Below, piece by piece: positions 4,421 to 63,904 of a stretch of DNA of 64,000 nucleotides. The translations under genes and the position numbers were made by a program. The stretch lies in contig OZ024754.1 in assembly GCA_964016885.1 (NCBI GenBank), positions 16,988,001 through 17,052,000 on the forward strand. The letters are read 5' to 3'. The stretch's first letter is position 1. The number at the start of each line of letters is the position of its first letter. The notes under the pieces are model-generated. The model was not told where the DNA came from, made no database searches, and saw nothing but the letters and a program-made list of their open reading frames with translations. This stretch comes from Eledone cirrhosa. Its lineage: Eukaryota.

Positions 4421-4689
4421 TTAAAATGGTGGTTTGGTTTTATAGAACCAAAACCAGTTTTTGCCAGGTTTGTATCAAAAGGATTATGTAAGAAAGCATT
4501 CATCATCATCATTTACGCATGAAAATATTTCATACATTTTCAGAAAAAATACAATAATATTATTATTTTCTCAAATTCAATGCAATTTTATTTTCACATT
4601 GACTCTGTTAGATGTCAATCGACAAAACTAACCTTTTGTCCATTTAACTTGGAATTTAAGCAATTGGAGGACTTTCAGAAGATTTTATA

Positions 4690-6939
4690 TTAATGATGTA
4701 TATGACGAAAAAGAAGACGATTTAGAGACGTATGACATAGATAATAAATGGAAGTTCTTACATGACAAATTGCTGCAGGCTACTGATGAAACCTGTGGCT
4801 GGAGCAGAGCTCCAACCAGACAGAGAGTGACCTGGTGGTGGAACAGCACAGTAGATAAGGCTATTAGAGACAAAAGACTAGCATGGAAGGCTTGGAAAAA
4901 GGGTGGGAGTAGGGAAGAATATACAGCCACTAAGAGAGAAGCTAGACGTCAGGTGTACTTAGCACGCAGGGAGGCAGAGAGTAGAAGGTTTGCCAATGTT
5001 CTGCGATGGGAAGATCAGAGACGTGCGGTGTTTCACATTGCAAGGCAGTGTGTCAATGCAAATCAGGATGTTGTTGGAGATAAATGTGTCCGGGATGATG
5101 CCGGTGTTCTTAGTGTCATGAATGATCAGAAAAAGGAGGCCTGGAAATGTCATTATGAGAGACTGATGAATGTGGAGAACTAATGGGAGAGAGAGAAATT
5201 ACCCTTGGTAGATCCGGCAGAGGGACCAGCTATTGAGATTGACGAATATAGGGTCCAAGAGGCGATTAGGGAAATGAAAAATGGTAAGGCGGCCGGACCA
5301 TCGGGAATAGTTGCTGAGATGCTGAAGGCATCAGGGGACGTAGGCACTAAACTGGTTGCACACATCATCAATCAGGCTATATATGGTGGTGTCATACCCA
5401 AAGACTGGTGTAGCAGTATTCTCATAAATTGCTACAAAGGTAAAGGGGATGCTTTGGAGAGGAGCAATTATAGGGGTATAAAACTGATAGATCAGGTTAT
5501 GAAAGTGGCAGAAAGGATTTTAGCACAACTAATTAGAGAAAGGGTCAAACTAGATGAGATGCAGTTTGGTTTTGTGCCTGGGAAGAGTACAACAGATGCC
5601 CTCTTCTTGGTGAGACAAATGCAAGAGAGGTTCTTAGAGAAGAATAAGCCACTATACTTAGTCTTTGTTGACCTAGAGAAGGCCTTTGATAGGGTACCCC
5701 GATCTGTCATCTGGTGGTCCCTAAGGAAGCTAAGTGTTGAGGAATGGCTTGTGAGGACAGTGCAAACTTTGTACAGAGGTACTCTCAGTAAAGTCAGGGT
5801 AGGAATGGAGTTTAGTGAGGAATTCCAGATAAAAGTAGGAGTACATCAGGGTTCGGTCCTCAGCCCGCTCTTGTTCATTATAGTCCTCCAAGCCATAACA
5901 GAGGAGTTTAAGACTGGCTGTCCATGGGAACTTCTCTATGCTGACGATCTGGTTCTTATAGCAGAATCAGTAGAGGAGCTAGAGAATAAATTCTGGCTAT
6001 GGAAACAGCAGTTGGAAGCAAGAGGACTGAGAGTGAATCTAGCTAAGACAAAAGTGTTGATGAGTAGAAAAGAGGACAAAACCCTGATTCCGTCAGGGAA
6101 ATGGCCATGTTCAATATGTAGAAAAGGAACTGGCATAAATTCTATAAAATGCACACAATGCAGATCCTGAGTACACAAGAGATGTAGCGGGATAGCAGGC
6201 AAACTAACAGGTAGGGAGAAATATGTATGCAGTAGATGTACAGGGAAATTAGACAGTAGAAGTCGCACTGATAGACACATTTTTCAAATGCAAGAGGGCG
6301 CTATAGAAGTGGTGGATAGCTTCCGGTACCTAGGAGATCAGATTAGCATGGGAGGAGGGTGTTCCGAGGCCATAGTATCTAGAATAAGGATGGGTTGGAA
6401 GAAGTTTAGGGAGCTGCTTCCTCTGTTGACGAAGAAGGGTTTCTCCCTGCGTACGAAAGGCCGGTTGTATGATGCCTGTGTGAGGAGCGCGATGCTGCAT
6501 GGTAGCGAGACATGGGCAGCAACTGCAGAGGATATGCGACGGCTGGAGAGAAATGAGGCAAGCATGCTCCGTTGGATGTGCAGTGTAAATGTGCGTGAAC
6601 GACCCAGCATAAATGTGTTGAGAGAGAAACTGTGTCTGAGAGGGATAGAATGTAGTGTACGGGAGAGGAGACTGAGGTGGTATGGACATGTGATGCGCAT
6701 GGAGGATGACCGATGGGTGAAGAAGTGCCAGGAAATGCCAGTTGAAGGAAGATGTGGTAGAGGTAGACCACGAAAAACATGGGCGGAGGTGGTGAGAACA
6801 GACCTCAGATCATTGAAGCTCACGGTGGAGATGACGAGGGACCGTGACGAGTGGAGAGATGCTGTGCTGAATAAGACCCGTCCCACCCTTGCAAGCAGGG
6901 AAAAGCGGACGTAAAATGATGATGATGATGATGATGATG
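4690..6939 (+). mobile_element. RTE-clade LINE (subfamily A), 5'-truncated, ORF2 reverse transcriptase with two in-frame stops
   Basis: ORFs 4770-5183, 5205-6170 and 6288-6914 are in one frame, broken by stops at 5181 and 6168. RT motifs KAAGPSGI, QFGFVPGKSTTDA, FVDLEKAFDRV, GVHQGSVLSPLLF, LYADD. RTE C-terminus [12 protein letters not shown]...GRGRPRKTW and a (GAT)n tail at 6917-6939. Confidence 0.96.
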
Positions 6940-13252: not shown

Positions 13253-13254
<2 letters not shown>

Positions 13255-15029
13255 TAATAGCGCAACTAATCAGAGAGAGAATTGACCTAGATGAAATGCA
13301 GTTCGGGTTTGTGTCAGGCAAAAGTACCACAGACGCTCTTTTCATAGTACGACAACTACAGGAGAAGTACCTAGCTAAAGGTAAACCCCTCTACTTAGCC
13401 TTTGTCGACTTGGAGAAAGCCTTCGACAGAGTCCCCCGCTCCATTATCTGGTGGGCTCTTAGAAAACTAGGCGTTGACGAATGGCTTGTGAGGGCTATAC
13501 AAGCCATGTATAAAGAAACAGTCAGCAAGGTTAGAATTAACAACGAATATAGTGAAGAGTTTAGCGTAAAAGTTGGCGTCCATCAGGGCTCTGTTCTCAG
13601 CCCACTACTATTTATTATTGCCCTTCAGGCTATAACAGAGGAGTTCAAGACAGGCTGCCCATGGGAACTCCTATACGCAGACGACCTGACACTCATAGCG
13701 GAATCAATGGCCGAGCTAGAGAAGAAATTCCAAACATGGAAGCACGGCCTAGAGTCAAAAGGACTTAAAATTAACCTGGCTAAGACCAAAGTACTAGTTT
13801 GTAGGAAAGAAAACAAGGCGGCGGTCCCTTCTGGGAAATGGTCGTGCTCGGTGTGTAGGAAAGGCGTAGGTAGAAACTCCATTTTATGTCCTAAATGCAA
13901 AGTATGGGTGCATAAAAGATGTAGTGGGATCACAGGTAAGCTCACTAAGAACATAGATTTTACATGTGGCCGGTGCTCTGGTGCAATAAGTAGCAGCAAG
14001 TGCCCACAAACTACTAGCTCTTTCAATTGCGCAGAGGGTTCTATAGAAATAGTGGACAGCTTCCGTTACCTGGGCGATAAAATCAGCAGTGGGGGAGGGT
14101 GCTCTGAAAGTACTGTAGCTAGAGTCAGAACTGGTTGGAAAAAGTTCAGAGAGCTTATACCACTATTAGCTGCTAAAGGGTTCTCACTAAAAATGAAAGG
14201 CAGGTTGTACGATGCCTGCATACGAACAGCAATGCTGCATGGCAGTGAGACCTGGGCATTGTGTGCAGAGGATATACGCAGACTAGAGAGGAACGAAGCT
14301 TGCATGCTCCGCTGGATGTGTAACAGTAATATACGTGAACGGCAAAGCATAAACGAACTAAGGAAAAAATTAGAGATAAGAGGGATCAGATGTTGTTTAC
14401 TCGAGAGAAGGCTACGTTGGTATGGACACGTGATGCGCATGAAAGTCGATAGCTGTATAACAAAGTGCAGGGCAATAAAGATAGACGGTAGTCACGGAAT
14501 AGGCAGACCTAGAAAAACCTGGGACGAGCTGATAAACTCCGACATCACACACTTACACCTCTCCAAGACAATGTCACTGGACCGAGACCTTTGGCGGTAC
14601 TCAGTAACAGAGAAGACCCGCCTTACCTAAATATATAGTAAAACCTACTCCAGCCAGTAGGCATCTCTAACAAAATACACCCCGTTCCACCACCCCCGCC
14701 CCCACCCCATCCACACCACCCCGTTCTATGTAAAGTTATGTTGGTGCCGCGCCATCGAGGCCGAAACAAATGAGATCGTGTAGGTGTCACGACAAAAAAA
14801 CACACAGTCCACGCTGTAATGTGGCCGTGTAGGCAACACGGTAAAAACCTCCCAGACCCACACTGTAAATGTGGTTGGTGTTAGGAAGGGCATCCAACTG
14901 TAGAAAACCTGCCAGACAGTCCTATGCGAGCAAGACAATCACTCTTGCCTCAAGTGGGACTACCCCCGTCCAAACCCATGCAAGCGTGGAACACGGACGT
15001 TAAACGTTGATGATGATGATGATGATGAT
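13253..15029 (+). mobile_element. RTE LINE (subfamily B), 5'-truncated, uninterrupted 444-aa RT/C-terminal frame, 3' UTR and (GAT)n tail
   Basis: ORF 13296-14630 with QFGF, FVDLEKAFDRV, GVHQGSVLSP, YADD and RRLRWYGHV. Near-identical to 54054-55264 (-). Confidence 0.96.
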
Positions 15030-21419: not shown

Positions 21420-22082
21420 GAGTGGACAGTTATGATTCACAGAAGCAGGGGCAGTTTCTGGTGGGTTGGTATCAAAAGGGTTTTATGAAACCGTTACAAA
21501 AATTGAAATTTGTCAAAATGAATTGTTTGAGATTATGGATTTGCGAAAATGGGTCAAAAGGGATTATTAATTTTCTGAATTGGGTCATAGAGGATTAATT
21601 TGCTGAAATGGGTCACATAGGATTATTGATTTGCCAAAATAGGTCATAGAGGATCATTGCTAAAATGGCTTGAAGCAGCTAAATTTGGGAAACATAGCTA
21701 GTAATGTATTTATATTTTTTAAATGGATGTCTGATGGATATGTCATGGAATGCATTTCAAATAAGAAAAGTAAGTAAATATATACAAAAAGGTTTTTTTC
21801 TGTTGTGGTTTATGTATTTAACTGGGTAATTGTATAAAGTGTAAAGTGTGTTGTGCGTTTTGGTAGTTTTAACTTGTTGTATTTTGTTGTTTGGCAGGGT
21901 TGGGCAAAGAAAAATTATATATATATAAATATATATATGCAGAGGATATATTTAATTTGTTGGGATTCAACAAGCTTAAAAAATTTTATAACTGCTTAAA
22001 AAATTTATAAAGCACTCAACAGATTAGTGGAGTAAATATACAATATATTAACAAATGGAAACTATATTTATAAAACCATATT

Positions 22083-22148
22083 TATTTTATTATACATATT
22101 TCAAGGGCCACCAAGGCAAATTATGGTGCGCTTTCATCAGATAAAATA
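22083..22148 (-). ncRNA. Hammerhead ribozyme motif (left arm of palindrome 22039-22307)
   Basis: Minus strand tattttat CTGATGA aagcgcacca..tggtggccctt GAAA tatgta TA ataaaata, with a perfect 8-bp stem I. Confidence 0.82.
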
Positions 22149-22197
22149 CAATACAATACAATATGTCAATATTTATTTATAAAACAAATCTGTATTG

Positions 22198-22263
22198 TAT
22201 TTTATCTGATGAACGCGCACCATAATTTGCCTTGGTGGCCCTTGAAATATGTATAATAAAATA
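22198..22263 (+). ncRNA. Hammerhead ribozyme motif (right arm of palindrome 22039-22307)
   Basis: tattttat CTGATGA acgcgcacca..tggtggccctt GAAA tatgta TA ataaaata. Confidence 0.82.
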
Positions 22264-23326
22264 AATATGGTTTTATAAATATAGTTTCCATTTGTTAATA
22301 TATTGTAAATATATATATATGTCTGTGTGTGAGTGTGTGTATGTATATATCATGCCTCTGATACCGTGTGGACTAAGATCTCCATCGAGGATTCTCTGAT
22401 AAGATGGGTTTTTCTGTTGTGATTTTAATTTTATTTCCCAAGTAACAGGACTTTGACTTGACCATAAATATATATATAAAACATTCTTCTGTGAAATGAA
22501 AGCTCTTTTTTTCCTCTCCCCATCTCTTGGTGTTCATTCTGTTTTCATATCTGCAATGAATCAATAAATCTTAGATTTGTATTACAAGAACAGACAAACA
22601 AAACAATGAAGTTGGCGATTATTCTGTTTGAAATGTATTTCTTTCTTAGACAGAGAGTATGTTACTATTTTCACACAAACACATGTGTTTGTGTGTGATT
22701 TTCTATATACTTCCACACTGGTGTGGTTAATGCAGTTGTCCATTCTACACTTGGGTTACTTAAGATTCTGTCCTCTGGTTAGGGGAGGAGAGGAATTGCA
22801 ACAGCATGCAGTTTTTGGAAGAAAGAATTTGAAGAAAAATTGTCGCAACTTCAATCTGATTCCCAATAGATTCCATAATAAAATAGATTAATTTTACTGA
22901 CAGTTATTTACGAAAGAAAGAAATGCACTTATCCAAACATCGGCTTGGAATCTGATAAGAATGCAGTCAACGTGAAAAATACATTCTTTTATTCACCATC
23001 ATTGTTTTGTGTAGATTTTCAAATATATATTATCATAGGTTTTTTCTTTTTTTTATATCCACTTTTCTTCATACCTTGTATTTTCAATATGGTATACACA
23101 TCATCATCATCATCATTTTATGTCCCCTTTCTGCTATAAACAATAATTTAGAAAATCAGGTAAAGGATCCCTTGAGATGGAACAAAAAGGGCATGTCCAG
23201 GGGTCCTTTACCTAAACTATTATTTATAGTGATTGATTATTATTATGGTCATTTGCGTTAGATGCACACATTTGAAATTTCATATATGTTAATTTATGGG
23301 TATACACACATGCATACATATTCACA

Positions 23327-23364
<38 letters not shown>

Positions 23365-23372
<8 letters not shown>

Positions 23373-23551
23373 GGCTTCTTCAGGACTAGAACTGTTTCAT
23401 TCGAAGGAAATCATCAAGCTTTTCTGGTGATTTCCTTTGAATGAAACAGTTCTAGTCCTGTAGAAGCCATTTATATATCAAATTTTGTACATAATCTACC
23501 AATGTATTGAGTACCTTACTTACTGTTGTTACTCCCGATTGAACCCGGGAC
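23365..23551 (+). mobile_element. Palindromic pLTR-like remnant (family H2) with two degenerate hammerheads
   Basis: Hairpin at 23365-23477 with cores mutated to CTGGTGA (+) and TTGATGA (-). The 3' end gtattgagtaccttacttactg..gaacccggga is shared with 35668-35876, 36158-36522 and 49305-49440. Confidence 0.75.
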
Positions 23552-24728: not shown

Positions 24729-24784
24729 ACTGCTATATATATTTCGATGATAGCCATTGAATGGCTATGACCTCATCAGGCAGT
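24729..24784 (-). ncRNA. Hammerhead ribozyme motif
   Basis: Minus strand actgc CTGATGA ggtc-atagccat-tca-atggctat-catc GAAA tatata TA gcagt, with a perfect 5-bp stem I, a strong stem II and a palindromic stem III. Confidence 0.82.
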
Positions 24785-24929
24785 TAGTCAGTTCTTAGAT
24801 ATGCCAGCTCTGTGTTTATAGTGTTGATGGTAACTCTGGAACTTATATCTTCGTTGAGTGCTCCCTATCCACATACTGAAGTACTGGATTTTACCAACAC
24901 TTACTTTCTTGCTTATATATATATATATA

Positions 24930-35138: not shown

Positions 35139-35382
35139 TATATATATATATACATATGAAGGGTTCATTTTACTGACATGGCTTTAAAAATGAGGCTTGT
35201 TTGCATAATTGCAAACGAAACAAATCAAATGTTATTATTAATATTCAAAAAACTCAGAATACATCTATTGTATTCAGCCATGTAGAGCGACAATTTTTTT
35301 TTTAAATATATATATGTATATATACATATATATACATATATATACGTACACACATATATATATATATGTATTTGGTGTCACA

Positions 35383-35649
35383 ACATCCAGCCCGAAACAA
35401 ACGAGGTCGTGTAGGTGTCACGACAAAAAAACACAGTCCACGCTGTAATGTGGCCGTGTAGGCAACATGGTAAAAACCTCCCAGTTCCACACTGTAAATG
35501 TGGTTGGTGTTAGGAAGGGCATCCAGTTGTAGAAAAGCCACCAGACAGTCCTATGCGAGCAAGACAACCACTCTTGCCTCAAGTGGGAAAACCCCCGTCC
35601 AAACCCATGCAAGCGTGGAATATGGACGTTAAACGATGATGATGATGAT
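35383..35649 (+). mobile_element. RTE subfamily B 3' UTR fragment with (GAT)n tail
   Basis: Matches 14760-15029. Confidence 0.88.
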
Positions 35650-35667
35650 ATATATATATATATATAC

Positions 35668-35874
35668 GTAGGTCCCGGGTTGAGTCGGGGATAACCACAG
35701 TAAGTAAGGTACTCAATACATGGCAGAGTAAAATTTTTTTATTTTATAGAAGGAGCTTCTACAGGACTAGTACTGTTTCATTCAGATGAAATCTTCAGGA
35801 AGGTTTCATCTGAAGATTTCATCTGAATGAAACAGTACTAGTCCTGTAGAAGCTCCTTCTATAAAATAAAAAAA

Positions 35875-35876
<2 letters not shown>
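35668..35876 (-). mobile_element. Palindromic pLTR-like remnant (family H2) with hammerhead cores on both strands (35754-35802 -, 35810-35854 +)
   Basis: CTGAAGA tttcatctgaat GAAA cagtactagtcctg TA gaagc, in hairpin 35734-35876, flanked by (TA)n. Confidence 0.8.
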
Positions 35877-36125: not shown

Positions 36126-36174
36126 ATGTGTGTGTTTATATATATATATATATATATAAGTTTTAATATAGATG

Positions 36175-36225
36175 AGATTCTACAGGACTAGAACTGTTTC
36201 ATTCTTTAGAAATCATCAGGAATCT
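36175..36225 (-). ncRNA. Hammerhead ribozyme motif (left arm of palindrome 36158-36457)
   Basis: Exact reverse complement of 36389-36439. Confidence 0.85.
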
Positions 36226-36388
36226 GGGTATCAATAAAAAAAATAAATAAAAATAAACTATAGCTTTGTAGAATTAGCTTTTAATGAATTCCCTTTTCTA
36301 TCAACCAATGACCTACACCCATCCCACTCCCCACCCTCTCCTACCACTTGTAGAGACCTATAAATACCATACTTATTTTTTGATACCC

Positions 36389-36439
36389 AGATTCCTGATG
36401 ATTTCTAAAGAATGAAACAGTTCTAGTCCTGTAGAATCT
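36389..36439 (+). ncRNA. Hammerhead ribozyme motif (family H2), predicted cleavage after GTA at 36433
   Basis: agattc CTGATGA t-ttc-taaa-gaa-t GAAA cag-ttctagtc-ctg TA gaatct, with a 6-bp stem I, 3-bp stem II and 4-bp stem III whose loop contains CTAG. Confidence 0.86.
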
Positions 36440-39084
36440 CATCTATATTAAAACTTTTATACTCTGCAATGTATTGAGTACCTTACTTACTGTGGTTACC
36501 TCCGATTCAACCCGGAATAACGTACTATATATATATATATATACACACACATACACATGGTGTGTGAGCTGATCTTAGAATGTTGAAGCTATCAGAGGAG
36601 ATAATGAAGGAATGCAGTAGGTGGAGGAAAACTGTGCTGGAAAAGACCTGCCTAAGTAATGAAACAGACATAAAAGGATAACACACACACACACACGCAC
36701 ACATACGTGCACATGCACACACACACATATACTTTATAGATTTCTTGTGAAAGTATCTTGAATCTGCTTAAGTTTTGCCGTATCTAGTTGAAGTTTTACC
36801 TCTAAGAGAATTAATGCAACTCTAATGGAAGTTTAGAAGTATTTCAGTTTTCGAAAGCAGATCTGAGTGCTTTTTAAAGATCCTCTGTTTTAGAAGAAAA
36901 TTTCTAATAATAAGTATATTGAAGAATTATAGAGTTGTCAGTAACTAAAATAATGATCATAAAGAGACATGGGCAATTACTTTCGGTTAAACATCAGACC
37001 CCAAGAAATGTACCTCTCACCATATTGCAGTTTTGGTGGTCTTATTTGTGCCAGTTACCAATTTGCTACTTTCTCAAATCTGTGAAGAGGAGGCGCTTTT
37101 AGAGGTGGCCTTTACTCACTTCATCATAGCTACATCATTTGGTTGTGAGACTTTTCTTGGGAGCTACTAGTGTCACTCATTGATCCATCTTCTCTAGTAG
37201 TTTACCTCTGTTGCTCTGGGACAATTCATCCAACAGGTGCCTGGCTGTATTGCTGTCTGCCACCTGCGACTTGTTCTCTAGCAGAACAGCTCTGCCAAGA
37301 AAAAAAATGTATTCTTCTAAATCTAGAGGCAGCTACAAGCCAATGAAGTAGTCTTTATGTAGTTGTTTGACATGATAAAATTGGCTACCAAATCTTTGTC
37401 TTGGTTAATTTTCTCAGGAAAAAAAACATACTGAGAAATTTAATCCTTGAAACAAAACTCATATATCATTAAAAATGAGGAATGAATGCTGGTCAAATGC
37501 TGAATTGTTTCCTTGTCAACACTGCTTATCAAATCTGTGGTAACAGTTGTTTATATCTTCTTAAGTAATACTTCTTTTTGCATAGTGGCCCCCAACAAAC
37601 ACCAATGGCATGTACCATACTTGGAATAAGATTTACCATATATCCTCAAATATCCCCCCCCCCCCCCCGCCCACATTTTATGTCTGAGAAATAGACAAAG
37701 TTCCAAACCCCGTTTATAAACCAAGGCTGCTAATCGAAACATTTAAATGGTATATATAAGCCAGCCTCTTGTTTTACCATCAATATTTTTTGCAGTCTCC
37801 CATAGTCTAATGACTGAACCAACCTGTAAAAGAATAAAAGAGTACCTTAACTTTAGAAACTAAGTAAAAGAATATTTGGAAGAAATATAGTAATTAAGGA
37901 ACGAATTGACCTTCCTTAATTACTATATTCTCTTCCAAATATTCTTTTACATGCAAAACCTAGCTTTTAAAGTTGTTTTTCTTTTTTCTTTTAAATATAT
38001 ATATTTTTTAATGGATAAAATGACTCTTTAATGATGCAATTGCCATAATTTCAACAGAGTATCAGATAAAGTTACTTGTCAGGCAAGTGTAACTCTGAGA
38101 AAAGATATTTGTAATAGAAAAGTGCCATCGTATAATTTTAAAGATTGAATCTGTGAAATATTTTAAGAAAAGTAATTTTCACTTTTTTTCCCCTCATATA
38201 GTCTATTATATAAATCAATAAGAGTTAATATTAACTTACAGAGAGTGCATAGTAAAAACCTAGTGAAGTGTTTAAAGAGAAGAAAGTAGTTCACTTGTGC
38301 TCACTGATTTCATTTAGCAGAATTTTGTAAGTCAAAGTAGATCTTCAAGATATGTGCAGTTTTTTTGTGAAAGCTTGCCAGACAAGGGGGTAGGAGGATA
38401 CTTCAGTTGGTGTTATAAGACACAACTTCTCCTCTGCACTCAATAGAACGTGCAACCATATGTAAGCAGGGAAAGCAGATGTTAAATGATGATGATATAT
38501 ATTGGTGTTAGGAAGGGCATCCAGCTGTAAAAAAACAGGCCAACCTTGTGCCTCGGATGGAAACTCTCTAGGTGCAAAACCACGGTCTGTAGTGACCGAT
38601 GGAGACCCTTGATAATACAGTGCTGTCAGGATACATGTATATATTCTGACAGCAATGATTACTCATTAGGGGTCACAATATCTAACAAGATAAACATTGT
38701 CCTGGAACATTTTAAAGGATGAACTTGATTGATTATCATATCTTCCAAGAAAAACTAGCTCAAGAAAATGTTAGAATTTTGTTGATTTTTAGGAGAGGCT
38801 ATATTTGAAAGATAGGAAGTTTATGTGGAAGCAAGTTGTCTGTGATGATTCTTTTTTATTGATTTACGTCTATTTTCAAATATCTGCTGCTGTGTGTGGA
38901 ATATAACTGGAATTTATATGAATAGTCTTCCAATTAACATTGACTAAGTCACCTGATATTTAGTCTTTATTATCCTTCTTAATAGCATCTCTTCTATTTC
39001 TAGTTTAATTCCTGACAATATTGTGAATAACTAGATACCTCTTTTGTCTAAAGGTTAGATCCGGTAGTTAACGATTTCATATTT

Positions 39085-39395: not shown

Positions 39396-39520
39396 AGGAG
39401 GTGAGTTTTATTGTAGTACAATAAAGCAATGCAGATATCGGATAAGAAGCACTCTACAGTTTGTAGGACTGGAGTATACATAATATATAAGATCAAAAGA
39501 TGGTTAAAGGAGTTCCATGT

Positions 39521-39589
39521 ATTTTATTATGCGCATTTCAAAAACAAACATCATCATGCAATAATATTTGTGTTTTCATCAGATAAAAC
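39521..39589 (-). ncRNA. Hammerhead ribozyme motif (left arm)
   Basis: Reverse complement of 40591-40659. Confidence 0.83.
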
Positions 39590-40590
39590 AGGAGGACATG
39601 ATATGAATGCTAAAAAACACTTGTGGATAGTGCAGTTTTAAATCAACATATGAAAAGTAATTTTAGATTGATGTGTGATATTGGGAAAATATTTTGTTTA
39701 GAGAGGGGGGTGGAAAGGATGAAAAAAAGGGGAGGAGATGAGAGTGAAGGTGGAGAGGGAGAGATGGGTGATAGAGAGAGAGAGATAGTTTTTATAACTG
39801 AGAAAGATATATTGTTTTACATAGAGAGGTTGAAAACCGTTGGAAGATAATGTATAAATTAAAAGAATTTGAAAATTAACGAAGGGAAAAATATGTACGA
39901 AGAAGGAGAGGGAGTTAATATGTATTGAGATTAAAAAGTTTGATGATAGAGAGAAAAGAATAATGTATTGCGGATGAATATTCTAACGTCAAAAAAAATT
40001 GTGTGTATGTTTAAAAGTATTATGGAAATTTGAAAATTAACGAAGAGAAAAAAATTATTAAGGTTTGTGTATTGAAGGATTTGAGAAAAATAATGTGAAG
40101 TTAAGGTTTGTATATTGAAGGAATTGATAATATGTGCGTTAATTTTCAAATTTCCATAATACTTGTAAACATACACACAATTTTTTTTGACGTTAGAATA
40201 TTCATCCGCAATACATTATTCTTTTCTCTCTATCATCAAACTTTTTAATCTCAATACATATTAACTCCCTCTCCTTCTTCGTACATATTTTTCCTTTTGT
40301 TAATTTTCAAATTCTTTTAATTTATACATTATCTTCCAACGGTTTTCAACCTCTCTATGTAAAACAATATATCTTTTCTCAGTTATAAAAACTATCTCTT
40401 TCTCTCTATCACCCATCTCTCCCTCTCCACCTTCACTCTCATCTCCTCCCCTTTTTTTCATCCTTTCCACCCCCCTCTCTAAACAAAATATTTTCCCAAT
40501 ATCACACATCAATCTAAAATTACTTTTCATATGTTGATTTAAAACTGCACTATCCACAATTTTTTTTTAGCCTTCATATCATGTCCTCCT

Positions 40591-40659
40591 GTTTTATCTG
40601 ATGAAAACACAAATATTATTGCATGATGATGTTTGTTTTTGAAATGCGCATAATAAAAT
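40591..40659 (+). ncRNA. Hammerhead ribozyme motif (right arm), predicted cleavage after ATA at 40652
   Basis: gttttat CTGATGA aaacacaaata..tgtttgttttt GAAA tgcgca TA ataaaat, with palindromic stem III TGCGCA. Confidence 0.83.
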
Positions 40660-40699
40660 ACATGGAACTCCTTTAACCATCTTTTGATCTTATATATTA

Positions 40700-40737
40700 T
40701 ATATATATATATATGTATGTATGTATATATATATATG

Positions 40738-47949: not shown

Positions 47950-49225
47950 TTATTTTCAGAATAATTGATTATGAATAATAGCTATATGGTATGCGATGTT
48001 AGGTGTGGTAGAGTAAGAGTTTTTAATGGTATTTTTATTTATAAGATTATGGTATTTGTGGCCAGATGGAAAGTTTTTTTCTATGATTGAGAAGAAAGCC
48101 TTAGGTAAGTTGGTAGAGATGTTTAGATTGAAAGGGGGATTGAAGAATGTATTAGTTCTTCTATTTTTGTTTTTTGTAATGTCTTTTGGGGTATTTGTAT
48201 TTCTCTTTATATTATTATTGTGGTGTTTACTTTGGTGCGAGTTAAGTTTGATATTACCCTTCGTATTAGAGTAAGAGTGGCCAATACTCTTATTATTTTT
48301 CCTCATGGCCATGTGAGAAATAATGCTGTAACTATGTGATTTTATAGGTAGGAATTCAATCCCATTTTTATGGTTTGATTTAGCTAAGGCCTGATTATAG
48401 TATTGGGAATTATTGTTAAATATGGTTTCGTTATATGATAGATTAGATATTCTATTAGATATTCCTTTAGTAATTGAGTTTAATATGGATTTAGGGTGGT
48501 TAGACTTGGTATCCACATAAATTAGTTTTTCGTTTGGTTTATGAAAGGGTGTATATATTTTAGAGTCTAGGTAAAGGGTAGCACCAAGGAAGTTAACGTT
48601 TTTAGTGTTTTTATCTAAGGTGATACTTAAGTTGAAGTTTTTGAAAATTTTATGTAATAGTTTCCTAGTTCTTTCTATATTAAATTTTTTATAGTCTATA
48701 AGTAGTAGTGCATCATCGCAGTATAAACCACCATTGAGCTATGGTAGATCCTTATGGGTTTCATTTAGTAGATATAGGCCCACCAAATCAGTGACCTGCG
48801 CTGAGTCACTAGATCCCATAGTTATGTCAAAGTTGTTATGCATATCCTTGCGGGTCCATAATTGATCTTCAAATGTAATTATGATTTTTCGGGCCGCAAG
48901 TATGACATCCATCTGGGGTCTAGTCAGGTCACTATTGTTCATGGCCATAATTAGTGCCTTATTTAATAGGATATGGGAAATAGAGGTGTAGTATGAATTG
49001 ATATCAAATTGTATAAATTTTTTATTTTTATTCTCATTAATATCCTTAAACCATTCAATAACTTCACCTGTATTTCCCCATTGGTTAAGATATATTTTGT
49101 GCTTAATCTGTGGGATGATTCTATCTAATATTTTCTTGCTGATAATACCAATGTCGGATTTGGAAGGGCAGATTAGTCTTATCGAAGGGTTACTAATGTA
49201 GTCTTCTTTATGGTCCTTCAGAGAG
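47950..49225 (-). mobile_element. Penelope-like element reverse transcriptase fragment (decayed)
   Basis: Minus strand KDHKEDYISNPSIRLICPSKSDIG...NQWGNTGEVIEWF...FIQFDINSYYTSI...FDITMGSSDSAQVTDLVGLYLL...GGLYCDDAL...VNFLGATL...SNHPKSI...FFNPPFN, with at least one in-frame stop. Confidence 0.92.
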
Positions 49226-49309
49226 AATTTATATATTTATAAATTTATATATTTATTTATATATATTTATATATATATATATATATATATATTTGTATTT
49301 ATTTATCAG

Positions 49310-49361
49310 GGCTTTCCTGATGATTTCCTTCGAATGAAACAGTTCTAGCCCTGTAGAAGCC
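49310..49361 (+). ncRNA. Hammerhead ribozyme motif (family H2) in a pLTR-like remnant 49305-49440
   Basis: ggctttc CTGATGA tttccttcgaat GAAA cagttctagccctg TA gaagcc, followed by the shared H2 3' end. Confidence 0.78.
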
Positions 49362-49452
49362 ATTTCTATATTAAATATTTATACTCTGCTATGTATTGAG
49401 TCCCTTACTTACTGAGGATAACCCCGCTTGAACCGGGATACACATATATTTA

Positions 49453-57729: not shown

Positions 57730-60700
57730 AGAAGCCTACCACTTCATGGTCTGCGACAACTGCTTTAACCACCTTCATCGTTCACAACAACTATTCAACC
57801 AATTTGCTGTAGACATGGCTGCGAAAATGAAAACTGAACGACTGTGCTTCATAAGATTAACCAGACAAAACTACACTGCGACGATTACATTCACCTATGT
57901 GATGGAATGAACAATAATGAAAACCCAGATAACATTGGAAAAGGTTGCATTTTACCTTCAACCTTCGAAGGAAGTCCCTGTTGTGTGCATTCAAGAACCC
58001 AGGACGCCATGACGTATGTGCTCGAGTACGGCAAACCAGACCTATTTATTACTTTTACATGCAATCCTTCGTGGCAAGAAATTGCCCATGAACTCCTTCC
58101 GGGACAACAGCCCAGCGGTCGCCATGACCTCTCATCCAGAGTCTTCGAGCTAAAAGTATACAAACTAATGGACCTTATCAGAAAGGGCCAGGTATTTGGA
58201 CGTGTGCAATGTTACATGTACACAATTGAATGGCAGAAATGGGGACTCCCCCATGCTCACATTCTTATTTGGTTGTTGACAAAAATCAGAGCAGACGACA
58301 TCGACAAGATTATATCCGCAGAGCTTCCAAACCTGCAAACTGACAAAACCCTATTTGACAGGGTTACGGCGCACATGGTTCACGGTCCTTGTGGACGTGG
58401 CTTCAAATCTAACTCCCTGTGTTTGAACAACGGTATTTGCTCCAAAATATACCCAAAAGCCTTCCTTCGCGAAACTCAAACTGCTGATGACAAATACCCA
58501 TCATACAGATGAAGAAGCCCTGAGGACGGAGGATTAACAGCACTGGTTGGAAAACATGAAATTGACAACCGATGGATTGTACCGTACTGCCCATTACTAC
58601 TCAAGGCGTTCAACTTCCGCATAAATGTTGAATGGTGCAACTCTATTAAATCAATCAAATATGTCTGCAAGTATATAGATAAGGGCCCGGATGCCGCCAT
58701 GTTCGGGCTTAAAGAAGAAAACAAACGGGATGAAGTTGCACAGTACCAATCAGCACGATATATAAGTACCAGCGAAGCCTTTTGGCGAATTTACCGCTTC
58801 TCAATGCACAGAAGATACCCTGCCGTCCAACACCTTGCTGGGCACCTGGAAAACGGCCAAAGAGTGTACTATACAAAACAAACAGCTTTTCTGAGGGCTC
58901 TGCAACCAAGGAACACAACTCTTACTGCATTCTTTCAACTATGTCAAGCCGACGCATTCGCTCGCACTTTACTGTATCCCCAAGTCCCCAATGGGAAAAG
59001 TATTCATGGAAGCCAAGAATCAAAGGTGAAAGCGTTGATGGTCATCCAGATTTTAACTTTGACAGCTGCCTGGCGCGAGTTTACACAGTGCCCCCATCTA
59101 CCAAGAATGTTACTACCTGCATATGCTTCTCCATGACGTAAGAGGACCAACCAGTTTTCAACACCTAAGAACTGTTGATGGCCAAATTTGCGACACGTAC
59201 AGAGAGGCCTGCCTCAGGCGTGGACTACTGGAAGATGGTGCTCAGTGGGATGCCACTTTGGCAGAAACAGTTGTTTCACAAATGTCACACAGCCTGAGGA
59301 AGCTTTTTGCTGTCTTACTGTACATTTGTGAATTGCCCGATTCTTCCTTCTTGAGGATCAAGTACAGAGATGACCTCTCTGAGGACTTCAGATATCAAGC
59401 ACAATTACAACTTCCTGACATGGAAGTAGGCTTCACAGATGAAATCTACAACAAAGCACTTATTGAAATTGAAAATATGATTGCTGCAATGGGTGGGAAT
59501 GCACTGCAGTAATATGGCCTGCCCCAAACCAACAGAACAGGCTCCAACGTCATTTCCGCAGAAATACTTCGGCAACTATCCTATGACACTGACAGCTTGA
59601 CTACATATGTCACTGAATATGAACCAATGCTGCTGTAGGAACAGGAACGAGTATATAACACTATTGCTGACTGTGTCCACCGTCGTACGGGAGGAATCTT
59701 TTTATTGGACGCCCCTGGAGGCACAGGGAAGACTTTTGTCATACGGCTTCTCCTTGCCAAGGTTCGACAACACAGACACATAGCACTTGCTCTGCGTCTT
59801 CTGGTATTGCAGCAACCTTGCTTCCTGGGAGCAGGACAGCACATTCAGTCTTCAAACTCCACCTCAATATGACGGCAAATGACACACCCTGCTGTAATAT
59901 TACCAAAGGATCAGAAAAGGCAGAACTGCTTAAAAGGTGTGAACTTATAGTTTGGGACGAATGAACCATGGCTCATAAAGCAGCTTTGGAAGCATTGGAC
60001 TGAACTTTAAGAGACATAAAAGACTCCCAGGATCCCATGGGAGGCTTGACTGTCCTTTTATCCGGAGATTCTAGACAAACTCTCCCTGTTATTCCCAAAG
60101 GAACAAGGGCTGATGCTATTCGAGCATGTTTAAAGTCATCTCTGCTTTGGCATTATGTCACAACATTAATGCTCTCTACGAACATGAGAGCTCGGATGAT
60201 TGGTGACCAAGTGTCATCAGATTTTGCTACCAACCTATTGACACTTGGGAATGGCAAAGTGCCACTTGATGAAGATGAAAAAATCTCCCTCGAACCGGTC
60301 TGCACTTTAGTCGACAGTGCTGACGACTTGACAGATGCAGTATTCCCTGAGTTGAGCACTAACTACCAAAATCCAAACTGGCTGTGTGAAAGGGCAATAC
60401 TGTCTCCGAAAAATGAGACTGTCGACAAAATCAATGGACAACTGCTTAAGTCTCTTCCTACAGCTTAGTCCATTGATACAGTCACAGACCCCATTAACTA
60501 CCCAATTGAGTTTCTTAACTCATTGAACCCCTCCGGGTTGCCATCTCATCGATTGGAACTTAAGCAAGGATGCCCAAATTATGCTTTTGAGGAATCTACA
60601 CCTACCAAAAATCTGCAACGGCACCCGCCTTACAGTAAATAAACTAACGCAAAACTTGATCGAGGCGACGATTCTCTCGGAGTGTAGAAAGGGGGAAAAT

Positions 60701-61953: not shown

Positions 61954-63852
61954 GTTGCAACCGGAAGAAGACAGGAAGACGATACTTTGGTTCGTGGAAA
62001 CGTTCACTGGCAAAGAACGGGAAAAAACGAATAATACGTCATTAATAGGAGCGGTGAAAAACAATTACGCGCAAAGACAGAACCACGTTTATGGTATAAT
62101 AGAGGTCGTAGACTAATGTTCTCTTAGGTGGGGCATAGAGACGTTCTCTGGCGATGAACGAAAAAAACGAAGATAATACGTCATATGTGGAGCGTGGAGA
62201 ACAATAGCACGCAAAGACAAAACCACGTAAATGGTATAGCAGAAGTCGTAGACTAAATTCTAACTAGGAGACCGAATGAATCTCCGCTACAGAGTTAAGA
62301 ACAAAGTAAATAAATACAATACAGAAGTAATAGAAATAAATAAATACATACACGCAAACAGAAACGTACATACACAAGCATACGCAAAAACTTACCATAG
62401 GTAAACAAAACCACGCACATATAAATATGTGTGTGTGTAAGCATGTATACAAATAAATAAATAATTATATAAACGTATATAAATAAATAAATACGTATAT
62501 AACAAGCGCACACACATACCTAAATGTAAATACACGAATGTTCAGAGACGTAAGTCAACCAAAACATGAGGTACACATATACACATATACACACGCCCTA
62601 CATACGTACGAACCTGCATACTCACACAGACGCAAAACTCCCGTATACACATAGCTGAACCATATGTACCAGAATATATAAAAAAATTATACGCCATAAC
62701 AATCAAATATTCGTCCGAGAAGGTATACATACCTTCACAAAACATACGGATAATATATACTTACCTATGCAAATAAGTAAAGGTATAAATAAAACATATA
62801 CTTAGCTTCCACATCGAGACGTAAAATATCCACGTATAGATCGTACTATCCGTTAGGGTATAACATGGGGCTGTAATACAGGAAAGTTTTGTGCAATTTA
62901 TGTTTACAAGCCGAAATTGCCTCAGATTTTTTGTTTAAGATGTGGTCTGTGGCGTAGAGTATTTCCAGGGCCTCAGCGGCGCAGAGGTCACATGGTCTTT
63001 TATTTCCATTATACGATCTAGCCCTCGCTAGAATCTCCCAGTGTAACTTATATTGGGTGTGGTTGTCTGTTAGACTCCAGATATAAGCTGAAAGTGACGT
63101 CATATTCCTTCTTAGAGGGTAACGAAAAGAATGGGTATGCATGTAAAGACGCTGCTTGAATCTATTGGCGGTTAACCCTATGTAGGCCCTACGGGACGTG
63201 GGTGTTACAACCTTACATTTGTAGACAATGTTACTAGAGAGGCATTTCCCGGATAGAGGGCTATCAACCCGATTCCTACAATTACAGTTAGTACTACCTA
63301 CAGGGTTGCACGTGTTCCTATGGCTAGGTAGTTTAGCTAAATTTGAAGCTGTGATGTTATGTGCAAGGTTAGGAGTCGTAGAGTAAGAAATTTTAATAGT
63401 ATTTCTATTAAAAATTTTACTATATTTATGTGTAGGGGGAAAATGCTTCGTAATAAGGGAAAGAAAGATCTTAGCTAATGATGTGGCCACCTCCATATTA
63501 TATGGTGGGTTATACCAACAAATGCGACGGGATCTATTTCTTCTAGTTCTATTTTCGTACTCTGTATATGCTACCTTATCGACAAATCCACTTCGAGCAA
63601 GAGCTTCATTGTAATAAGTGGAATGGTCGTTGAAAATGCGCTCGTTGGTGGAAAGACGGGAAAGCCTCAACGAAACGTTTCTTACCAGGTTCTTGGTTAT
63701 GCTGGCAGGATGGTTGGAATGCTTACTTATGTAATTAAGCGTATCATTCGGCTTTCTATACGGGTAATACAACCCATTCAATAAGTTGAGGGTAACATCG
63801 AGGTAATTAACGACCGAGAGATTGGCCTCAACCTGTATAGAGAGGTTGAAGC

Positions 63853-63853
<1 letters not shown>
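61952..63853 (-). mobile_element. Penelope-like element, 5'-truncated: RT thumb, linker and GIY-YIG endonuclease (open frame 62846 to about 63850) with downstream non-coding region
   Basis: VNYLDVTLNL..YYPYRKPN..SNHPASI..WYNPPYN..KIFNRNTIKISYS..CNCRNRVDSPLSGKCLSSNIVYKC..AYIGLTANRFKQR..CDLCAAE..LNKKSE. The 3' region includes a duplicated unit of about 125-140 bp (61997-62121 and 62138-62260). Confidence 0.92.

Positions 63854-63854
<1 letters not shown>

Positions 63855-63904
<50 letters not shown>

Follow-up and report, generated by a model that had tools for sequence, protein, structure and literature searches.

Head-to-head hammerhead palindromes in Eledone cirrhosa as truncated ends of a Hydra-clade Penelope-like element, probably formed by two primings on a capped RNA

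Inverted, 5'-truncated copies and a one-sided tail are described as standard anatomy of Penelope-like elements (PLEs) (PMC8557442, PMC3846280), and hammerhead pairs on opposite strands, 100-700 bp apart, were noted in PMC4209133. Penelope-13_HM, as presented in PMC8557442, has an inverted 5' copy and hammerheads on both strands. The hammerhead family described here, which occurs in a 64,000-nt stretch of the Eledone cirrhosa genome (the window), is another member of the Hydra-type PLEs, and its inverted 5' copies, one-sided tail, (TA)n targeting and T.T pair are already in print. In common with the C-terminal EN+ PLEs of the Hydra clade (Craig et al. 2021, PMC8557442), its protein carries RWR/RWK, DKT and CxCX5C motifs and a GIY-YIG domain with CxxC and CxH; the (TA)n target, the inverted 5'-truncated copy and the canonical hammerhead, in that account often with T...T by the core, are also shared. 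Nevertheless, the hammerhead differs from all 25 set out in that work, Hydra-1_Obim included, the unit is ~4.7-5.8 kb rather than <3 kb, with a microsatellite-rich 3'UTR of 2-3.5 kb, loop III has 8 nt, the tail measures ~70 nt as against 30-40 nt, and end copies number in the tens of thousands.

Other described systems share parts of this organization. Poseidon_Ac of Anolis (Frangieh et al. 2024, PMC11167929) belongs to a different clade, and its ORF begins inside the hammerhead, whereas here the ORF starts 137 nt beyond the cleavage site. According to that report, two internal RT start sites bound the tail in vitro, each of the two target strands is cut and then extended, and insertion uses uncleaved RNA as its substrate; the present family resembles it in the first of these and would resemble it in the others. 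Penelope of Adineta vaga (Arkhipova et al. 2013, PMC3846280) likewise has head-to-head pLTRs, palindromic junctions, an optional tail and a putative TATA/Inr in the pLTR, but the account given for it, self-priming on an antisense template, appears to fit the junctions described below less well than would two primings on capped sense RNA. Metazoan non-LTR retrozymes (PMC7229834; bioRxiv 10.64898/2026.07.22.740005) are similar in their type I hammerhead, short copies without an ORF and PLE ancestry. However, they are described as head-to-tail tandem monomers, whereas the copies in the window occur singly or head to head, as ends of a parent that bears an ORF, and within the family a retrozyme resemblance is confined to a 78-bp and a 1.07-kb array outside the window. 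Finally, twin priming in L1 (PMC4729875, PMC9341517) provides a parallel for inversion via priming from both target strands and for an untemplated 5' G, taken in PMC9341517 as a copied cap. The L1 arms are reported to copy non-overlapping parts of the RNA, whilst the arms here usually cover the same 60-70 nt, so that two RNAs or strand displacement would be needed.

The original prediction placed four copies of a palindromic cassette at 23365-23551, 35668-35876, 36158-36522 and 49305-49440 of the window, three of them with an inverted second hammerhead. All four are found there; copies 36158, 23365 and 35668 are head-to-head and copy 49305 has a single arm. In a motif scan of the window, four positions, 36395 (+), 36219 (-), 35798 (-) and 49317 (+), each carry a complete type I hammerhead; the seven arms of the four copies are all connected by local BLAST. 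Element positions are counted from the first base 3' of the predicted cut (+1, after GTA), which places the first base of stem I at -45. The features are:

36158..36245, minus strand: inverted tail-less arm of copy 36158-36522, element ~-58 to +22, with an intact type I hammerhead
36241..36388, plus strand: upstream pseudo-LTR/3'UTR stretch of the parent (the earlier 'spacer'), 159/160 nt identical to locus L003 and aligned to the full-length copy L111
36359..36366, plus strand: TATAAATA box, 30 nt 5' of the first base of stem I, a putative promoter
36389..36439, plus strand: type I hammerhead with 6-bp stem I, CTGATGA, T.T plus 3-bp stem II, GAAA, and stem III with an 8-nt loop; predicted cut after GTA at 36433
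36456..36525, plus strand: one-sided ~70-nt 'tail', in full-length copies a leader continuing into the ORF
23365..23551, plus strand: relatively old copy of subfamily C, a short palindrome whose turning point lies in stem I, with (TA)20 at its left
35668..35876, minus strand: copy of subfamily B inserted in (TA)n, a short palindrome with its turning point at stem I
49309..49440, plus strand: subfamily C single-arm copy, whose initial G, possibly derived from a cap, is followed by the first base of stem I

Copy 36158-36522 has perfect hammerheads on both strands (36395 +, 36219 -), and its arms are identical across the core. Both arms extend past -45, to ~-58 and ~-200, and the copy is not of the capped type. 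Its ~120 bp between the arms had been read as a spacer but are the element's own upstream sequence, as listed above, so this copy is simply less truncated than the others; the junction of 36241..36388 with the inverted arm is an A-rich overlap. In copy 23365 both cores have decayed (CTGGTGA, TTGATGA) and the inverted cleavage triplet is GAA, and the centre of copy 35668 holds a 13-nt duplication. The tail is indeed common to all four copies, although that of copy 49305 carries substitutions. Similarly, stem I does change on both sides between agattc/gaatct and ggctttc/gaagcc, but the second version contains one unpaired or wobble U and the exchange is not a clean 6-bp swap. Loop III, at 36421-36428, contains a palindrome, CTAG here and ACTAGT in subfamily B, that might provide a dimer contact.

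By their sequence, the window copies are 5'-truncated ends, comprising a pseudo-LTR with a type I hammerhead plus the tail, of a Hydra-clade PLE inserted in (TA)n. The idea of a stand-alone cassette is not supported, whilst the suggestion of a parent PLE is borne out by an ORF that lies downstream of the tail, encodes RT and GIY-YIG, and runs uninterrupted for 713 codons in full-length copies. In loci L007 and L033 the tail reads on into this ORF, and the tail-ORF junction has 63 exact matches in the genome. The ORF is uninterrupted in six of nine long loci, which were picked for looking open, and the pLTR-ORF-3'UTR-pLTR layout is present in seven of the nine. The six open ORFs differ by 14-42 of 2,142 nt, indicating that the family is young. 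Parents also exist for the other stem I variants, namely subfamily B, whose protein is 74% identical and whose ORF stays open over at least 715 codons, and subfamilies C and D. In L031 and L032, multi-kb palindromes of the same PLE family turn inside the ORF, with a 2-3 kb (TA/TG)n-rich 3'UTR in each arm. The 22-nt core of the tail (36471-36492 in the window) does not differ between subfamilies with 74% identity in their ORFs and is a candidate protein-binding site between the two RT starts.

Membership of the Hydra clade is indicated by diagnostic protein motifs, the (TA)n target and the canonical hammerhead. The proteins of subfamilies A and B have RWR at position 38 and DKT at 116; the linker CxCX5C corresponds to C566-C568-C574 and is followed by C666-C669-E672 (CxxC..E) and C694-H696 (CxH). 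YRDD and Y..YIGMT are invariant or near-invariant in an alignment of 78 proteins, which took in 77 of the 120 homologs listed, and, judging the translation by eye, the EN lacks CCHH, as expected of Hydra. The hallmarks of EN+ PLEs are likewise present: a single ORF with a telomerase-like RT and C-terminal GIY-YIG, pseudo-LTRs, inverted 5'-truncated copies and a one-sided tail. The predicted structure of the protein (pLDDT 92.6) has telomerase RTs as its five best fold matches. Pfam returned no domain on the whole ORF or on four homologs, with GIY-YIG appearing weakly on a fragment (E 2e-4, below the cut-off), and a PDB sequence search with the ORF protein gave no match. The generally short length of Hydra elements (<3 kb) does not apply, the hammerhead-to-hammerhead distance in L112 being 4,963 nt because of the microsatellite-rich 3'UTR.

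In the 3.0-Gb genome (G000) the 22-nt tail is matched exactly 17,133 times and its reversed control not once, and the hammerhead core pattern has 24,928 matches, which rules out chance for the repeat family. All genome counts are exact pattern matches in this assembly. A satellite inflates the plus-strand core counts, and ratios were therefore taken from the minus strand. Its 78-bp unit is the window family's hammerhead (-59 to +18), occurring in contig C28 from ~30.497 Mb (L334, L335) and in C1 at 350.2 Mb (L332), with 636 exact junction matches on one strand only, the first 100 listed spanning >90 kb. L331 (C1, 83.68 Mb) is a retrozyme-like tandem array of at least nine units of ~1.07 kb, each composed of 3'UTR, hammerhead and tail without an ORF. 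Family sequence is also present in contigs of three sequencing runs, which shows presence and not expression; one run may be the assembly's own sample.

The ribozyme has the CUGANGA/GAAA/UH core and three helices, with 96.6% of cells paired among 27 distinct parent-type hammerheads, and is a type I hammerhead predicted to self-cleave. An Rfam scan gave no hammerhead model at E<=1, only microsatellite-driven miRNA matches, and in thermodynamic folding the monomer MFE structure is not the hammerhead fold (z -0.27). Both ends of stem II carry T in 24,165 of the 24,928 cores, in place of the closing G10.1-C11.1 pair, a G-C termed highly conserved in PMC4209133. This T.T pair, originally regarded as unusual, is therefore the rule here, and our own count from File S2 of Craig et al. 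2021 (PMC8557442) finds T...T beside stem II in 14 of the 25 Hydra families of that file. A literature search found no assay of U.U at 10.1-11.1, although subscription journals and supplements may hold one. Selection for folding had been argued from covariation, which is confined to two pairs of stem I with changes on either side (12 cells in the same 27 hammerheads); stems II and III are invariant, and the number of covarying pairs is reached by 229 of 500 shuffles, not above chance. Nevertheless, the hammerheads of subfamilies A and B differ at 7 of 51 nt, all in loops, at N7 or in one compensatory pair, whilst only 110 of 216 4-fold ORF sites (51%) are identical between them, which argues that the ribozyme sequence is constrained. 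Since the tail is equally conserved, promoter or protein-binding roles could add to this constraint. The subfamily D copy used has two unpaired changes in its hammerhead.

The outer ends of the copies fall at two places. Of 100 tail matches listed, 87 were examined and one duplicate was removed, giving a tail-anchored sample of 86 copies, 50 of which have an inverted arm within 700 bp. Among 56 subfamily A arms, 31 end at +7 to +22 and 21 at +86 to +94, with 4 elsewhere, so that there are two fixed outer ends, at +15-22 and +91-94. These match the two RT start sites that bound the tail in the in vitro results of PMC11167929. The tail may stand on either side of full-length copies (L111 versus L115). 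Six of the 50 inverted copies have the cleavage site in their tail-less arm but not in their tail arm, and each arm of these has sequence absent from its partner; neither arm can thus have templated the other. Both arms have the same loop II variant in 25 of 26 pairs, where 19% would be expected, pointing to one donor or to later conversion. A clustering of tail-arm ends at +13 to +35, as a collision of two primers might leave, was considered and set aside, this interval being not clearly denser than the adjacent one (hand count).

The inner limit is sharp and coincides with the first base of stem I. Among 56 subfamily A arms whose core is intact, the start falls at -45 to -39 in 34, at -46 to -55 in 3 and farther upstream in 19. 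Genome-wide, the minus strand holds 6,162 cores, of which 1,524 reach -48 and 1,035 get as far as -45 but depart from the parent at -46 (6 of 71 arms examined in this last class are long arms with a substitution); the corresponding inner-limit counts in subfamily B are 736 versus 601. Subfamilies A-D, despite their differing spacer sequence, all have a TATA box 29-32 nt upstream of -45, and 29-32 nt is the usual distance from TATA box to start.

Position -46 is occupied by G in 79 of the first 100 matches listed (hand count). Under a strict filter that removed every case explicable by element or flank sequence, setting aside 38 G cases as templated, G is found in 13 of 18 (71 arms examined, p=0.0009). 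The extra G accompanies 11 of 19 arms starting at -45/-44 versus none of 10 starting at -42 to -39 (p=0.0035). In subfamily C, 14 arms have 10 G, 3 A and 1 T at -46, and the long arms have C in 3 of 4 (55 arms listed), a small sample in which one G arm has a D-type 3' strand and the partner arm could account for several G cases; the G arms include window copy 49309. A stem I join would give T in this subfamily, yet G prevails. In subfamily B the counts are 45 G, 53 A and 2 T (hand count among the matches listed), 34 of the A cases being one recurring overlap junction, and in both A and B the G may also derive from a stem I-mediated join or a re-copied 'cag'. Together with the TATA spacing, these counts point to a likely capped RNA beginning with stem I. 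No publication dealing with a cap, or with a start site, at a PLE hammerhead came up in a literature search; subscription journals and supplements may hold one.

The reading preferred here, with a probability of about 0.65, is that both cut target strands prime RT at two internal sites on RNA and that the resulting cDNAs are joined head to head, the template being a capped, uncleaved RNA beginning at stem I. In this model the element's protein would cut both (TA)n strands, and each target 3' end would prime RT within the leader, one at ~+22 and the other at ~+92. A TATA promoter in the pseudo-LTR would start the capped RNA at stem I; on this uncleaved template both cDNAs would run off at -45, the extra G representing the copied cap, and end-joining of the two run-off cDNAs would yield palindromes of 130-200 bp. 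Longer copies, such as 36158-36522, would stem from templates reaching farther upstream (read-through, tandem or circular RNA). A more tentative and rather doubtful proposal is that the capped PLE mRNA opens with the hammerhead, as its first 51 nt, which would act like the R region of a retrovirus. RT from the leader would then make a strong-stop cDNA to the cap that normally jumps to the ribozyme copy at the 3' end, rebuilding the pseudo-LTR; short palindromes would be paired strong-stop cDNAs without the jump, and cleavage by the 5' ribozyme would decap its own mRNA. Counted in favour of this proposal are the 4 of 19 ORF-bearing loci that start at -51 to -33, and the requirement in Poseidon_Ac, as reported in PMC11167929, for ORF-proximal RNA, found only behind the 5' pLTR, for initiation.

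Among the alternatives to the two-priming model, the same PLE parent might generate palindromes by fold-back, with either one cDNA or an antisense template priming itself, as proposed for the rotifer Penelopes; the limit at -45 would then arise where stem I, being self-complementary, snaps back. PMC3846280 invokes an antisense template on which self-priming takes place, junction microhomology of 1-6 nt is often present here, exact stem I joins occur in L011, L203, L302, L303 and L378, and the arms are near-identical within a copy. Fold-back is nonetheless unlikely: it requires one arm to template the other, contrary to the six copies of 50 whose arms each hold private sequence; single-arm copies, too, start at -45 to -43; the extra G can occur on both arms (L297, L304, L360/361); and two fixed outer ends require two start sites. 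Another alternative is a template of ribozyme-cleaved or circularised RNA, as in a retrozyme-like rolling circle with processing sites as inner ends. Circular templates are proposed in PMC4209133, and a template of this kind would suit the tandem arrays of the family, namely the satellite with its 636 junctions and the 1.07-kb array. A circle would have no end at -45, however, and 5' ends do not peak at the cleavage site, where by inspection only 1 of 44 subfamily A tail arms starts, with stem I microhomology; the same lack of a peak led to rejection of the cleavage site (after GTA) as the turning point. For the short palindromes such a template seems very improbable indeed, but it may still account for long and tandem copies.

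The palindrome centres bear on the remaining scenario, in which the short palindrome is a non-autonomous, MITE- or SINE-like unit amplified as a pre-formed hairpin. In the tail-anchored sample, centres are distinct in 43 of the 44 copies with both arms crossing the cleavage site, and range from 0 to 423 nt; point mutations raise the number of distinct centres, yet their lengths differ too. Identical inversion breakpoints in all copies, the sign of a pre-formed unit named by the original prediction, are thus not seen, and its claim that each palindrome is made anew holds for the most part, since palindromes mostly seem to arise at insertion. The exception is subfamily B, in which one junction is reused (at least 17 overlap pairs among the 100 matches listed) and a second is common to 8 of 30 loci, as a pre-formed hairpin would predict. 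These recurring junctions sit on a self-complementary 6-mer and have variable outer ends, however, and a microhomology hot spot would consequently be the simpler reading for that subset. In addition, the short copies lack the TATA box, and the hairpin scenario is regarded as very improbable.

A young and very abundant family of this kind logs the steps of PLE replication in thousands of junctions. If a capped start at stem I and uncleaved copying from two internal sites are correct, the origin of Penelope-type inverted repeats, for which the published model is antisense self-priming, would be explained, and the ribozyme would sit at the cap, recasting the question of what such ribozymes do in PLEs. 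The capped-start, two-site model is testable, since ORFs are open and the predicted coordinates are exact.

The window also holds other hammerhead and transposon sequences. A 1.25-kb head-to-head palindrome of a different hammerhead family (39452-40700; cores at 39582 - and 40598 +) lies between (TA)n arrays, and its family also occurs in L003; a TATA box 30 nt above stem I was looked for in this palindrome and none was seen. A third hammerhead family is represented by a short head-to-head pair at 22060-22300 (22140 -, ~22230 +), and a lone hammerhead of yet another type occurs at 24740-24790 (24779 -). LINE-like RT fragments of RTE type, bearing (GAT)n tails, and the remnant of a Helitron-like Rep/helicase, all labelled from their motifs, occupy 4632-6911, 13254-14627, 35360-35650 and 57838-60465. 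ORF fragments of other Hydra-type PLE families lie at 47959-49236 (-) and 62849-63904 (-). Copy 49305 stands in the (TA)n run adjoining the first of these, which was considered as its parent and rejected, as comparison by eye places it in a much more distant family.
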